A stretch of DNA of 64,000 bases from contig NC_091476.1 of the NCBI RefSeq assembly GCF_036971445.1, forward strand, positions 149,420,001 to 149,484,000, read 5' to 3'. The position numbers and the translations under genes are program-made. This document shows positions 1,774 through 60,016 of the stretch, piece after piece. A model generated the notes under the pieces. The model saw nothing but the letters and a program-made list of their open reading frames with translations, was not told where the DNA came from and did not search any database. The stretch is from Narcine bancroftii. Taxonomy: Eukaryota. Position 1 is the stretch's first letter. Each line of letters begins with the position of its first letter.

Positions 1774-2232
1774 CTGGTGATGTTCAACATGGATGCTGTC
1801 TCCTGTCGGCCAGCGGTGCTTCCCATTGTACCCGCCGCCGCCGCCGCCCCCGCCTCCTCCTCCTCCGCCACTCCCACCGCCCCCTGCTACCCCACCGCCT
1901 CCGCCTCCTCCCAGGTGCTCCCCGGGCTGCCGCTGGAAGAAGTAATCCACCATGGCATCGTCCTGCGAGCGGCCCGCGGCCAGCGCCAGGGCTGGCACCA
2001 CCACCGGCACGGGAGGGCCCATGGAGCCGGGGCCTTGCGTGGAGGCGGCGGCGGCCGCCAGCGCCTGAGAGGCGGCGTGCTGCTGCTGCTGCTGGGGGCC
2101 GGCGGTGGAGGGTCCAGTTAGCACCACAGGCATGTTGTGAACGACGCTGTTGCCGAGAGGGTCCTGGGGTGACGGCGGTGGCGGCTGATACTGTTGCTGG
2201 GGGAGGGTGTCCTGCCAGAGAACTTCATTCAT
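1774..2232 (-). CDS. PUM1: Pumilio homolog 1, first coding exon (N-terminal low-complexity region); gene continues beyond the left edge of the window
   Basis: Translation contains [36 protein letters not shown], poly-Gly and [16 protein letters not shown], matching the vertebrate PUM1 N-terminus as I recall it. NMPVVLT and DDAMVDY favour PUM1 over PUM2. Splice donor CAG|GTCAGT at 1774/1773; acceptor TTTTGCAG|G at 2270/2269. Confidence 0.9.
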
Positions 2233-2764
2233 ACCTTAAAAACACAGGGAACAACCATCCCACCTAGTCCTGCAAAACACAAAAGTAAGACCACAACTTT
2301 ACACAAACATTGAGAAAATGCACCACCCGAACATTTCTGCTTTCGGTGAAGACAGTTTTGAACCATAATGGGTGCACAAAACTGCTTTCACTGCTCCCCA
2401 AGTTGCCCACCTCCAAATGCCCCTCTCTGAAAATAATACCTCAGGACACCAGCCTCCAGATATCAACATTCATTTGGATCACCAAGACAGTACTGAATGG
2501 GAGAATCTACAGCATGTGAATCCCCCCCCCCTCAAGATGCCAAGTGTTTCAATCCATTTCACAAGGCATGGATAAATTCGAGTGTGTGTATATATATCCC
2601 AGGGAAAAAAAGGATGTTTATTTACAACTTGTAGTCCATAAGCATGTAATTTTACCCCTGATCTTTTAGAGAGAGATATATCTATTCTCAAGTCTGGATA
2701 TTTACACGGAATTTCAAGATACAGTAATGATATTTGACAAGCAATGATCTTACAGAATCGCCCC

Positions 2765-2795
<31 letters not shown>

Positions 2796-4314
2796 ACCAG
2801 GGCTGCAGAACATGGAAGCAACAAAGAAATAGGCCCAGCTTTCAAAACATGTTCTGGGTGGGAATATTCTCTTATTTCCAAAAAATATATCCAAGCCGTC
2901 CAAATTTTACCATCTTCTTGAATGTGAAATGTATATCAAATCTTATACGCATTTAAAATTGTCTAGATGTTAAGACCAGCAGCTCAATGCAAACTTCCAT
3001 CTCTTAATCCCCATTCTCATCAACTGCTGGTTGGACGTGCAACCTTAAGATGACCATGAATCCAAAATATAATTAAAACAAGTCAATTATGTCTCCAACT
3101 AATCGAATCCATGCCTTTCCAACATTCTTGCAACAGATCACTGTTCGGGTTAAATATTTGTTTTGTACAATTAGAGTGAGATTACTCCATGGACTTTTTT
3201 GTTTAAACAATTTGTTTGTGAAACCTTTAGTGGAGTTGAAAGCCTCTTGGAAGAAATATGAATCAACATACGGTTTGAAAAATTAATCTTTAAAACTAAG
3301 TGTGTGTGAGTGAGAGAGAGAGACCCACTTCCTTTCATATTTTTATAATATATGTAGTGATACAGTGAAATAGTGATATAGTGAAAAGATTAAATGTTTT
3401 TCTAAAACAAACCAGACTTGTGGAACAGCTACAGTTGGAACATATGCAGAAAGCATACAACTTTCCTAATTACAGGCCTAGCAGTACTGCACGAGTGTTG
3501 GGTAATCCCAGTATCTGAATTTTAGACCATCCCAGATCTCATTTTCAGGTTGAAATACTGAACTCAGATCACAAAATTGGATTTTTAAAAAAAAAATCAA
3601 TTTTAGTTTTTCCTACGAGCTTTAAAAATGTAGGATTTGCAACAAGATTTGGATGTTTTACCCTCGTTTAAGCAATCTAGCAAACACCTCACCCCATGAG
3701 GATTTATGTGTAGCAAAAATGCACTAAATGGCAACACCAATTCCCTTTCACTACGATTTTTTTGTGTTTTTGCATAACTGCAATGCCTCCACATTGAAAC
3801 ACACATTCAACCTTTTTTATTCAAATCTGCATTTCAAGCTTTTTAAACAAAGAAATGCTCCAATTCATCTTATAATCATGAACACAATTCCATTATATTT
3901 CATGCCCTGAAAACTGCCTTCCTTCCCCATTGTAAAAGCCTCGTTTCCTGAAATAATTGAAAGGAGGAAATTTTCACAAACTTTACCCATCTGGCTTTGT
4001 GCAGAGGTAAACGGGCCCTTAAAATTTACCTCCTCTTCCCCCTACACAAAAACACCCTCCACGATTTTCCAATGCTACTGCCCCTTTCCCTCCACCCTCT
4101 CCCCAAGACACACACACACACATATATATAATACACACACAACACACTACAACAATGGCCCCCGAGCCCAAAATACTGGGCAGAAAGGGGCGCTGGAGGA
4201 AAAGAAGACCCTCAAATTCTCCCCCTTCCCCGCCACGCCGCCCCGAAATATCGGGCTGCCCGGGTGACTGGGGGTTTCTGCTGTCGATTCGTGGGGTCAG
4301 GGCGAGGTACTCAC

Positions 4315-4395
4315 TGGCAGAGCGGGCAGATTGCAGCGGATTGCGGCCCCTCTCAGTCCTCCTTCTTTACAACATGGCGCTACACTGGGACACAC
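4315..4395 (-). promoter_or_regulatory. PUM1: PUM1 non-coding exon 1 and TSS within a CpG-enriched promoter (~4155-4440), with a YY1-type CGCCATGTT motif
   Basis: Local CpG/GC enrichment. Minus strand reads GCGCCATGTTGT (4369-4380), similar to the start of the mammalian PUM1 transcript as I recall it. Donor CCA|GTGAGT at 4315/4314. Confidence 0.7.
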
Positions 4396-57357: not shown

Positions 57358-57717
57358 CAGTGGTTTTCAAACTGCCCCCTAAACTCATATTCCACCTATG
57401 CCATAAGTGCTCTGTGATTAGTAAGGGATTGGTTAAGGTATTATGTGAGTGGGAAGGGAAGATTGAGAACCACTGCTCTAGACCAATTGTTACTGAAATA
57501 TTTCGCTTAAGAAAAATTGATATTGGCCTATTTCCTTTGGAGTTATGAAACCGTGCACATAATGAGTTAATTAGGGACAATTAAAAGAGTGGTTTTCAAA
57601 CTTTTTCTTTCCAGTCACATTCCACCTTAATCAATCGCTTACTAATTACAGAGCATTTATGGCAGAGGGATTGCTTAAGGTGGAATGTGAGTTTAGGGGT
57701 CAGTTTGAAAACCACTG
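57358..57717. mobile_element. Composite hAT/Charlie-like MITE, second copy (opposite orientation to 47673-48048)
   Basis: TIRs CAGTGGTTTTCAAACTG...CAGTTTGAAAACCACTG; the core is the reverse complement of ~47806-47916; CTCTAGAC/CTCTAAAC flanks resemble the Charlie target consensus. Confidence 0.75.
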
Positions 57718-59252
57718 CTCTAAACCTTTCCAATCCATGCACCTGTCCAAATATCTTTTAAAGTCTACAGTTGTACCCATCTCTATCAATTCCTCTGCCA
57801 CATAACCACCACCTTTCAAATCTTTCCCCTCTATAATACATGGGCCTTATGATTTTCTAAATCTCCATAATGTCCCCCTTTACCTCCTATGCTTTGAGAA
57901 GAGACCCAGCCTATCTAGCCTCTCTGCCAGACCCAGTAACATTCATGTGTATCTATTCTGCACCCTTTCCAGCTTAATGATGCACTTCCAATATCTGGCC
58001 AACCAGTGCCCCCCACAATGTGTTATGCTACTCAATGGTAGACAGTTGCTGAGTGCCACCAATATTATTTCAGGGTTTGGGAAGTGTGACTCTTCTGCCT
58101 ACTCTCCCCATTGGCTCTGCCTGTGGGTTCCTGATCTGTACCTCTCTTTGAGAAGGGGTAAGTATTGGCAAAAAGGATTCAGATGCCAATTGATTCATGA
58201 GATCCTCATTCTGACCATAGGCTGTCAGTTGGCCTCTCCATCCCCATTCTACGATGGAGTACATGAAACAAAAACCTTGTATTTCTAACACATCCGTAGA
58301 GATGAGGAGAAATTTCTTCAGCCAGAAAGTGGTGAATCTGTGGAATTCGTTGCCAAGACAGTGGTATATTTAAAGTGAATTTGCTGGGTTCTTGATAAGT
58401 AAGGGTGTCAAAGCTCATGGAGATTGAATCAAGAGCAAAAATACATCAACCATGATTAAAATGGCAGAGCAGTCTTGATGTGCCACATGGCCTAATTGGA
58501 CTCCTCTGTCTTATGGATTTATTTTCATGTCCCATACAGGATGTTCCACAGAAGTTATGCCATAGAACATTAAAACACAGAAAGAGGCCCTTTGGCCCTT
58601 CTAGTCTGTGCCGATCCATTTTTTATGTCTCATCCCACTGACCTGCACGCAGTCCATAGCCGTCCATATCTCTCCCATCCATGTACCTGTCCAAATTCTT
58701 CTTAAATGTTAAAATTAAGCCCACATTCACCACTTCAGCTGGCAGCTCCTTCCACACTCTCACCACTCTGTGTGAAGAAGTTACCCCTAAACTTTACCTG
58801 TTCACCCTTAACCCATGCCAATGAACCTTAATAGACGTGCTGACGCCACTGTGGTATAGGAGTGTGGGCAGAGAACCTTGCCACAGGCAGGAGAAGTTTT
58901 AACCAGTGGAGAAAGGGTTAAAAGTCCTTTTTTTTTTCAACTCAGCCTGCTGTTCAATTAAGCAACAGACTGGCTATAAGACTGGAGCAATCAGATCCAA
59001 TAGGAAACTGGATGAACGCTGTCCTTGGGGGATGGCCTGAATGTCAGAAGTGTGAGGAAAGATGAGTAGGAGACACATTAATTTCACACTCAGCTGAACA
59101 GTCTTCTTCTGGTATTGTCTGTCACTACGGTGTAGCCTGGGAGAAATTCCAGTGGAAGAAGGAAAACAATACAGGGTGAAACCTACGGCTGGTTTTGAAT
59201 TCCAGTTCCTGGTCTGGGCGAGGATGTGGAAGAAGTCTCAGTGCTTGAAAGT

Positions 59253-59321
59253 GGGCCAATCAAATGGCACGGAGCAGGGTTGAGTCATAGAGCTAGGACA
59301 ATCTGATTGGGCAGCCAATCC
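59253..59321 (+). promoter_or_regulatory. CCAAT-box cluster upstream of Rho-like gene 2
   Basis: GGGCCAATCA (~59253), CTGATTGG (~59303) and AGCCAATC (~59313) within 180 bp of the ATG. Confidence 0.5.
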
Positions 59322-59431
59322 AGCTCTGATCCACAAAAACTCCCCTCTCGCTACGAGAACTGGTAATACACCTGACTGAAGGAGTGGTGTGTGTTGATCC
59401 TGAATCAGAGCAAACCCTTCCTGAAGCAGGC

Positions 59432-60016
59432 ATGGCAACTGTGAGGAGGAAGCTGGTGGTGGTTGGAGATGGGGGCTGCGGCAAGACCAGCCTGCTCTTT
59501 GTATTGAGCCGGGATGAGTTCCCTGAAGATTATGTCCCCACTGTCTTTGAGACCTACGTGGCAGACATTGAGGTGAACCAGAAACAGGTGGAGCTGGCTC
59601 TGTGGGACACAGCGGGGCAGGAGGACTACGATCGCCTGCGACCCCTCTCCTACCCTGATACCCACGTCATCCTGGTCTGCTTCTCGGTCGGCAGCCCTGA
59701 CTCCCTGTGGAACATTCCAGAGAAGTGGATGCCTGAGGTCAGGCACTTCTGCCCTGGGGTACCTGTGGTGTTGGTGGGCAACAAGAAGGACCTGAGGAGC
59801 GATGAGAGGACCAGGCGGGAGCTGGCATGGAGCAAGAAGGAGCCGGTGAGGTGGGAGGAGGGCCAAGCCATGGCGGAGAAGATCGGCGCCCACGCCTACC
59901 TGGAATGTTCAGCCAAGACGAAGGAGGGTGTCTGGGAGGTGTTCGAGATGGCCACACGGGCCACTTTGAAGGAGACCCAGATGGGATGCTTTGACTGCCA
60001 GTGCATCTTGCTGTAA
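59432..60016 (+). CDS. Intronless RhoB-like small GTPase, copy 2 (194 aa, CAAX = CILL)
   Basis: ATG at 59432 in strong Kozak context (GGCATGG). All G boxes intact. Tail [10 protein letters not shown] resembles RhoB GCINCCKVL. The upstream GTG start in the ORF track is unlikely to be used. Confidence 0.92.

Follow-up and report, generated by a model that had tools for sequence, protein, structure and literature searches.

A tandem pair of RhoB-like genes beside PUM1 as a probable ohnolog of RHOB retained in cartilaginous fishes

RHOB, a much-studied tumour-related GTPase, is commonly regarded as an ancient retrogene of RHOA that originated at some stage of early vertebrate evolution (PMC7835786, in part). 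In the genome of the ray Narcine bancroftii, a stretch of 64,000 nt (the window) contains two intronless RhoB-like genes beside a Pumilio gene, which raises the question of whether they belong to the whole-genome-duplication sister lineage of RHOB, as a sequence-only reading of the window had held. Mirrored synteny, grouping with RHOB and recurrent linkage to PUM1 supported this proposal. The pair is very probably a 2R ohnolog of RHOB that chondrichthyans retained and that was duplicated in tandem, with a lipid tail of RhoB type and a predicted altered effector loop. The features are collected in Table 1.

Table 1. Features of the window (positions in nt) and of the two Pumilio blocks (positions in Mb of contigs C17 and C15)
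Feature	Position	Strand	Remarks
PUM1 first coding exon	1774-2234	-	remainder of gene left of window
CpG-rich tile	4001-4500	-	probably promoter and non-coding first exon of PUM1; putative splice donor at 4314
Forward and inverted CCAAT boxes	40273-40345	+	68 nt apart; upstream of copy A
Single gap-free contig of run X4	40337-42431	+	2095 nt; likely single-exon transcript of copy A
RhoB-like copy A	40562-41146	+	194 aa; G33, D40, T41; tail end CCTMM
CCAAT, TGAG element, inverted CCAAT, third CCAAT	59256-59320	+	upstream of copy B
RhoB-like copy B	59432-60016	+	194 aa; D33, E40, T41; tail end CQCILL
MATN, C17	148.69	-	
SDC, C17	149.06	-	
PUM, C17	149.32-149.42	-	
Rho, C17		+	two genes
NKAIN, C17	149.54-149.68	-	
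SERINC, C17	150.23	+	
MATN, C15	157.72	+	
SDC, C15	157.34	+	
PUM, C15	157.15-157.26	+	
RHOB, C15	157.10	-	
NKAIN/SERINC, C15	182-184		

Both Rho reading frames were uninterrupted and lay upstream of the minus-strand PUM1-type exon in divergent orientation, which confirmed the arrangement first read from the letters. A search of the window and of the following 60 kb gave no third Rho copy. The coding sequence was read as intronless from the ORF and the gap-free contig for copy A, and from the ORF only for copy B. The products matched the Pfam Ras domain (E=2.5e-49; Rho-family GTPase, RhoA-like group), the top structure-database matches of the pair were RhoA, and the ESM Atlas returned generic Rho clusters only. 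Among the nucleotide-binding and switch positions, 17 of 18 were invariant in 27 rows and the 18th (G12) was present in 26. The dS to RHOB was 1.2-1.8 and the dN/dS was 0.09-0.13 (about 0.1). Both genes are intact and evolve under purifying selection, and at such a dS any poly(A) remnant or target-site duplication would probably be gone.

The Pumilio gene of the window was identified as PUM1, as the earlier reading held, by homologue names and by the scores of PUF exons. Read from the sequence, its first coding exon has an AG acceptor 2 nt upstream of the ATG and, past 1774, a GT donor, and the remaining exons extend to C17:149,317,683. Among the 120 longer homologues listed for this exon, the full-length named ones all bore the name 'pumilio homolog 1' or '1-like', and 'homolog 2' did not occur. 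Human PUM1 (1ib2) scored above human PUM2 (3q0q) in all three C17 PUF exons tested (170.5/168.4, 147.8/142.7 and 126.0/120.9 bits), while the comparison with mouse PUM2 gave one tie and one gap of 0.6 bit. The Pumilio gene on C15 showed a clear PUM2 preference in two of three exons tested, the third being equivocal. Of all 500-nt tiles in the window, only the CpG-rich one upstream of the PUM1 exon combined GC>0.5 with CpG o/e>0.6.

The ray genome contained the order MATN-SDC-PUM-RHO twice, with matching relative strands: the C17 block has PUM1 and the pair, the C15 block PUM2 and RHOB. Paralogous blocks of conserved order were mirrored between the two contigs. A separate canonical RHOB next to PUM2, which the earlier reading had proposed to look for in the same assembly, was thus found on C15, divergent from PUM2. 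The SDC and NKAIN exon scores matched C17 to C15:157-184 Mb (174 and 236 vs 163/125 and 199/178). On C17, NKAIN came after the Rho pair, and NKAIN1 is the human neighbour of PUM1. A LAPTM search recovered neither block.

With RHOB the pair shared a single-exon coding sequence (PMC5852563, in part), a divergent Pumilio neighbour within a syndecan-matrilin block (PMC1464127, in part), V10, E29 and V86, a cysteine-rich non-basic tail, and 71-73% identity to the RHOB of this genome. It differed from RHOB in adjoining PUM1 rather than PUM2, in its two tandem copies, in its fast evolution and in S20, L25, T41, W141 and W168, which were present in 27/27 rows of the PUM1-side clade; the last two tail cysteines of copy B were separated by one residue, in contrast to the RhoB motif CINCCKVL (PMC2780327, in part). 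V10, E29 and V86 (24/27 each) were common to the clade and RHOB against RhoA/C and invertebrates. An additional tail cysteine was found in 27/27 clade rows vs 0/13 RhoA/C rows, and the tail contained on average 0.74 K/R in the clade vs 5.1 in RhoA/C. The clade tail is non-basic, with palmitoylation-type cysteines before the CAAX box, as in the RhoB lineage. RHOA and RHOC share the fold family and catalytic residues with the pair, but their coding sequences are interrupted by introns (at three loci of this genome) and their tails are polybasic. The ancestral G116 and E/D149 were kept in 25/27 and 26/27 clade rows, whereas RHOB had A116 in 16/18 and a hydrophobic residue 149 in 18/18. The clade mostly lacked these RHOB-specific states, and its retention of the ancestral ones speaks against derivation from crown RHOB by copying.

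The RhoA/B/C tree proposed by the sequence-only reading placed the proteins with RHOB and not with RhoA/C. In the 67-row tree the PUM1-side clade was recovered at 100/100 and joined to RHOB at 98/96; in the 38-row tree, which left out two acanthomorph rhob rows, the joint node was 99/93, gnathostome RHOB was 89/92 and the clade was its sister. RhoA/C formed a separate clade in both (98/92 and 100/95). The stem branch of the PUM1-side clade was long (0.52). The topology with the clade as sister to gnathostome RHOB had the best likelihood in 3/3 AU runs, but none of the six topologies was rejected in any of the three runs, and the p values were 0.23, 0.16 and 0.13 when the clade was joined to RhoA/C. 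The best tree put the duplication before the split of cartilaginous and bony vertebrates (89/92), and an origin within chondrichthyans was not rejected by AU. Because AU rejected no alternative, synteny carries the case.

The PUM1-side Rho clade was present in 22 named chondrichthyan species, including sharks, rays and chimaeras. Its accession lay within 15 of the PUM1 accession in 12 of the 14 elasmobranchs checked and was not adjacent by accession in the other two, and the clade and PUM1 records lay on sequences of equal length in 13/14. Linkage to PUM1, taken from accession numbers and sequence sizes as proxies rather than maps and for elasmobranchs only, was thus recurrent across sharks and rays. 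Of about 8000 scored candidates, the best 120 included no member from bony vertebrates or cyclostomes, and the matches listed contained no RhoB named as lamprey, hagfish or coelacanth; rhob, pum1 and pum2 gave no match in the searched supplements of the hagfish paper. The 'RhoB-like' records of frog, bichir and milkfish were set aside, as by sequence they look like local RHOB duplicates; the host sequence of the Bufo record was equal in size to that of RHOB. Retention is apparently confined to cartilaginous fishes. In the skate supplement, Rhob is on Leri_5 and Pum1 on Leri_26, tentatively 2-alpha and 2-beta, and the pipeline of that paper appears to label a gene that may be the skate member as Rhoa-4 (PMC10115646, in part). 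The 19 ohnologs kept by chondrichthyans and lost in bony fishes, as reported for little skate in the same paper, resemble the pair in having been kept on a small chromosome, probably a beta one, and in faster evolution. The pair departs from those cases in lacking introns and in its presumed retro-derivation, by which the twin would date a retroposition.

The promoters were also compared. At copy B an inverted CCAAT lay 50 nt after the first CCAAT, as at the RHOB promoter on C15. Since at least two plain CCAAT boxes occurred in 48/199 window tiles, only the 50-nt spacing, a pattern chosen post hoc and found at 3 places in 264 kb including these two promoters, is suggestive of a likeness between copy B and RHOB. 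Promoter homology to RHOB by local alignment was not significant, as 219/650 (RHOB-B) and 296/650 (RHOB-A) tiles scored as high, and no similarity to the RHOB flanks was found outside the coding sequence.

Other routes to the same locus were weighed. An independent RHOB retrocopy or transposed copy in the chondrichthyan stem, landing upstream of PUM1 by chance, would agree with members found in chondrichthyans only (among the matches listed) and with the AU result for the clade joined to chondrichthyan RHOB (p=0.30, 0.15 and 0.36), and an intronless parent gives no intron trace to separate the routes. Such a copy would, however, have to hit by chance, out of many thousands of intervals between genes, the single one that mirrors RHOB, and in the mirroring orientation, and it would have to show the ancestral residues 116 and 149. 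A retrocopy does not normally carry its promoter along, and the spaced CCAAT pair, post hoc as it is, also speaks against this origin, which we consider highly improbable. Hardly more probable is that RHOB first appeared soon after 2R, on the PUM2 chromosome, and that subgenome exchange placed a copy at the matching site beside PUM1 before pairing ended, which would make its origin not pre-2R. This would account for the same synteny and tree, and the matches listed gave no cyclostome RhoB; but an extra event is required, and if 2R was an allotetraploidy, as described in PMC8302630 (in part), exchange should be limited.

The ohnolog could also be real but wider than cartilaginous fishes, with acanthomorph 'rhob' as its true orthologue through hidden paralogy. 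The 67-row tree, which included the acanthomorph rows, put the clade next to these within RHOB (85/80, unstarred), T41 and W168 were common to both, AU gave p=0.39 and 0.28, and several acanthomorph records were named just 'RhoB-like'. Against this, the closest teleost relatives (Engraulis P0161 and Logan P0359) have retained N41 and R168 and fall within RHOB, which makes the residues common to acanthomorphs and the clade look convergent. Acanthomorph rhob also lacks S20, L25 and W141 and is presumably located on the pum2 chromosome, and we regard hidden paralogy as very unlikely.

Under the preferred reading of a retained 2R ohnolog, an intronless RhoB ancestor would have stood head-to-head with a single Pumilio gene before the PUM1/PUM2 duplication, most probably the 2R event of jawed vertebrates. 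The PUM1-side Rho copy may then have evolved fast, been duplicated before the chimaera/elasmobranch split and been lost in bony vertebrates. Both copies are predicted to have a normal GTP/GDP cycle, and predicted prenylation and palmitoylation of the non-basic cysteine tail would give RhoB-like endomembrane targeting, while effector choice is predicted to be changed through the switch-I substitutions (33, 40 and 41). If this is true, the twin in the sister block would fix a minimum age for RHOB, before the PUM1/PUM2 duplication. The ancestral jawed-vertebrate Rho set would gain an apparently unnamed paralogue, a natural RhoB variant in which the lipid tail is kept and the effector loop is predicted to be changed. 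Ohnolog retention in sharks is already a known pattern, and the surprise is moderate. No published account of the PUM1-side pair was found in the part of the literature searched.

A more far-reaching proposal, which we put forward tentatively and think rather doubtful, is that the intronless RhoB lineage predates the first vertebrate genome duplication, descends from the RhoA/RhoC ancestor rather than RHOA, and disappeared together with Pumilio from the SDC2/SDC4 blocks, the shark twin being a concertedly evolving two-gene Rho module with two fixed effector loops without Asn41, the residue modified by C3-like bacterial enzymes. The placement of RhoB outside RhoA/C is based on the RhoA/C clade without RhoB in both trees. 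D/E146, G155 and M/L173 were common to RhoA/C and mostly absent on the RhoB side. In the AU tests, RhoB from RHOA (p=0.30) and from RHOC (p=0.25) were not rejected.

Among the sequencing runs searched, none on record as RNA contained the genes; four runs were taken to be RNA by guess, X4 among them. From X4, as a probable RNA run, copy A was covered by the unspliced contig of Table 1. In X1 and X2 the coding part of copy A was covered by two overlapping pieces, and X3 reached a depth of 2-5 only.

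Two intronless RhoB-like genes, copy A and copy B, accompanied the minus-strand Pumilio exon of the window, as the sequence-only reading had described. The exon was 94-95% identical to a sawfish PUM1. Since the remaining Pumilio gene extended leftward beyond the window edge, both Rho genes lay upstream of PUM1 and divergent from it, 38 kb (copy A) and 57 kb (copy B) from its start codon. A third Rho copy was found neither in the window nor in the following 60 kb as far as NKAIN. The stretch from about 28000 to 32000 was GC-rich, carried a reverse-transcriptase RNase H fragment (30068-30373), and was likely a decayed LTR retroelement.

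Rho genes and Pumilio exon of the window
Feature	Position	Strand	Basis
Copy A, Rho ORF, 194 codons, uninterrupted	40562-41146	+	ORF reading
Copy B, Rho ORF, 194 codons, uninterrupted	59432-60016	+	ORF reading
Pumilio exon (PUM1)	1774-2234	-	ORF/homology

Two PUF loci were detected in the ray genome (G000), one on the window's contig C17 and one on C15, and exons of the two, matched in three pairs, were compared by score with PUM1 and PUM2 chains of known structure. All three C17 exons scored higher with human PUM1 than with human PUM2 (with mouse PUM2, one exon scored equally and a second was separated by no more than 0.6 bit), which supported the proposed PUM1 identity; the C15 exons clearly preferred PUM2 in two of three cases, the third being equivocal. 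The C15 PUM2 gene retained a homologue of the N-terminal PUM1 exon (G000:C15:157,149,777-157,149,966); mammalian PUM2 is not known to contain the part that it encodes.

The gene order on C17 was MATN(-), SDC(-), PUM1(-), Rho(+), Rho(+), NKAIN(-), SERINC(+). Read in reverse, C15 displayed MATN(-), SDC(-), PUM2(-), RHOB(+), NKAIN and SERINC lying some 25 Mb away. The C15 Rho gene was intronless, 100% identical to a RhoB record common to several rays, and its start was some 48 kb distant from the PUM2 counterpart of the window exon; the separate canonical RHOB expected beside PUM2 was thus present in the same assembly, in divergent orientation. Exon scores paired C17 with C15:157-184 Mb, and paired with each other the two remaining SDC/NKAIN/SERINC blocks (C5 and C15:5-26 Mb), which showed no PUF gene and no intronless RhoB. 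The former pairing matches the published pairs SDC1/SDC3 and PUM2/PUM1; the source of these pairs gives RHOB as a neighbour of SDC1 and lists no Rho gene for SDC3 (PMC1464127). A skate supplement places Rhob on Leri_5 and Pum1 on Leri_26, tentatively 2-alpha and 2-beta in its table (PMC10115646), and 2R pairs typically match a large chromosome with a small one (PMC8302630). We infer that the C17 and C15:157-184 Mb blocks form a 2R pair. On this mirrored synteny rests the case that the Rho pair is, very probably, a retained 2R ohnolog of RHOB, the whole-genome-duplication sister originally proposed; the trees are consistent with it, not decisive.

The larger tree contained 67 proteins (27 chondrichthyan rows of copy A/B type, the shark clade; 18 RHOB, 13 RhoA/C and 9 invertebrate; LG+C20), and a 38-row subset without acanthomorphs was analyzed under LG+G4; neither tree included amphioxus, tunicate or cyclostome sequences. 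In the former, support was 100/100 for the shark clade, 98/96 for the clade with RHOB and 98/92 for RhoA/C, and the clade adjoined five acanthomorph rhob at 85/80. In the latter it was sister to all RHOB (89/92; joint 99/93). In both trees the pair joined RHOB apart from RhoA/C, and AU tests (40 and 38 rows) ranked the sister-to-all-RHOB topology first every time, rejecting no alternative. The acanthomorph link was based on T41 and W168, and is read as convergence because the teleost relatives of acanthomorphs lack both. N41T recurred in 7 of 18 RHOB rows (acanthomorphs, Labeo and a bichir duplicate; P0050, P0092, P0168, P0175) and R168W in 5 of the same 18; both seem to have arisen in parallel to the shark clade. 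V10, E29 and V86 (24/27 each) and extra tail cysteines (27/27) were common to the shark clade and RHOB. At positions 116 and 149 the clade kept the invertebrate states, G and E/D, which have changed in almost every sampled RHOB at 116 and in every one at 149. These residue characters point the same way as the trees, towards a putative sister of RHOB.

Close relatives of the pair were found in at least 22 named chondrichthyan species among the matches listed, including the chimaera Callorhinchus, entered in databases under the automatic names 'RhoB-like' or 'RHO'. Two protein searches, each scoring about 8000 candidates, showed no member from bony vertebrates or cyclostomes in their best 120 hits. 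The anticipated linkage to PUM1 recurred by a proxy, not by mapping, in 14 elasmobranchs with PUM1 accessions at hand: the clade gene lay within 15 accession numbers of PUM1 in 12 (exceptions: Hemiscyllium, 309 apart; Rhinoraja, 466) and on a same-sized contig in 13, Hypanus being unreadable. The RHOB records of catshark and basking shark were on contigs of a different size from these. Five models of 322-328 aa (P0001, P0124, P0143, P0144, P0149), in which the tandem copies were apparently spliced into one double-domain protein, are probably annotation artefacts concealing the pair.

One copy carried G33/D40 and the other D33/E40 (E33 in chimaera) in 15 of 17 species pairs, copies being assigned from this motif and some database models possibly being chimeras of both. 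Over a 124-residue core the copies differed by at most 3 residues in 12 of 17 pairs and by 11 in N. bancroftii. The tandem pair seems to be old yet homogenised, and the near-identical cores with distinct 33/40 motifs suggest gene conversion that may have spared switch I.

The dN/dS was 0.11 between the copies and 0.09-0.13 against RHOB. In run X4 a single contig of 2095 nt without gaps (40337-42431) spanned copy A, which X1 and X2 covered piecewise; these runs stem from one study, and their type was guessed as RNA. Read depth just upstream of the contig was near zero. The copy B promoter contained forward and inverted CCAAT boxes 50 nt apart, as at the C15 RHOB promoter, a pattern picked after it was seen and occurring at 3 places in 264 kb; alignment of the two promoters was not significant.

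Nucleotide-binding and catalytic residues (G14, F30 and Q63 among them) were intact, so the shark clade proteins are predicted to be ordinary regulated GTPases. Because S20, L25, T41, W141 and W168 were fixed (27/27 rows) and the two copies have different residues at 33 and 40, a changed effector choice is predicted. T41 would also take away the residue modified by C3-like enzymes, Asn41 (PMC11281641). The tail was non-basic, with about two extra cysteines ahead of the CAAX box; as such a motif suffices in RhoB to direct endolysosomal targeting and rapid turnover (PMC2780327), RhoB-like targeting is predicted, less securely for copy B, whose cysteine spacing is altered. The CAAX boxes were CTMM (copy A) and CILL (copy B). 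Under the usual rule that the CAAX ending sets the prenyl type, farnesyl and geranylgeranyl anchors would be predicted, respectively; this contrast was absent in several other species.

RHOB is a single-exon gene of presumed reverse-transcription origin (PMC5852563, PMC7835786). A bolder reading, in which RhoB arose before 1R from the RhoA/C ancestor, is less likely than not. A literature search, covering mainly titles and abstract openings and few subscription papers, brought up no account of a second RhoB lineage for cartilaginous fishes. The skate paper reports 19 ohnologs retained solely in chondrichthyans (PMC10115646), among which the Rho pair gene may already be counted. SI Table 5 of that paper lists, as Rhoa-4, a skate gene (LE27912) whose neighbours by id include Sdc3 and Col16a1 and which shows a strong anterior-posterior difference in the pectoral fin (baseMean 2018, log2FC 4.0; PMC10115646); it is probably the counterpart of the Rho pair gene. 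Three multi-exon RhoA/C-type genes were present in the ray genome (G000:C11:4.92 Mb, C11:245.10 Mb and C8:326.47 Mb), one above human RHOA and RHOC. L004 (G000:C29:64524024-64527566) contained an intronless Rho copy interrupted by a stop and close to the C11:245 Mb gene, likely a processed pseudogene, and another Rho copy (L005) was more decayed, with 4 stops.
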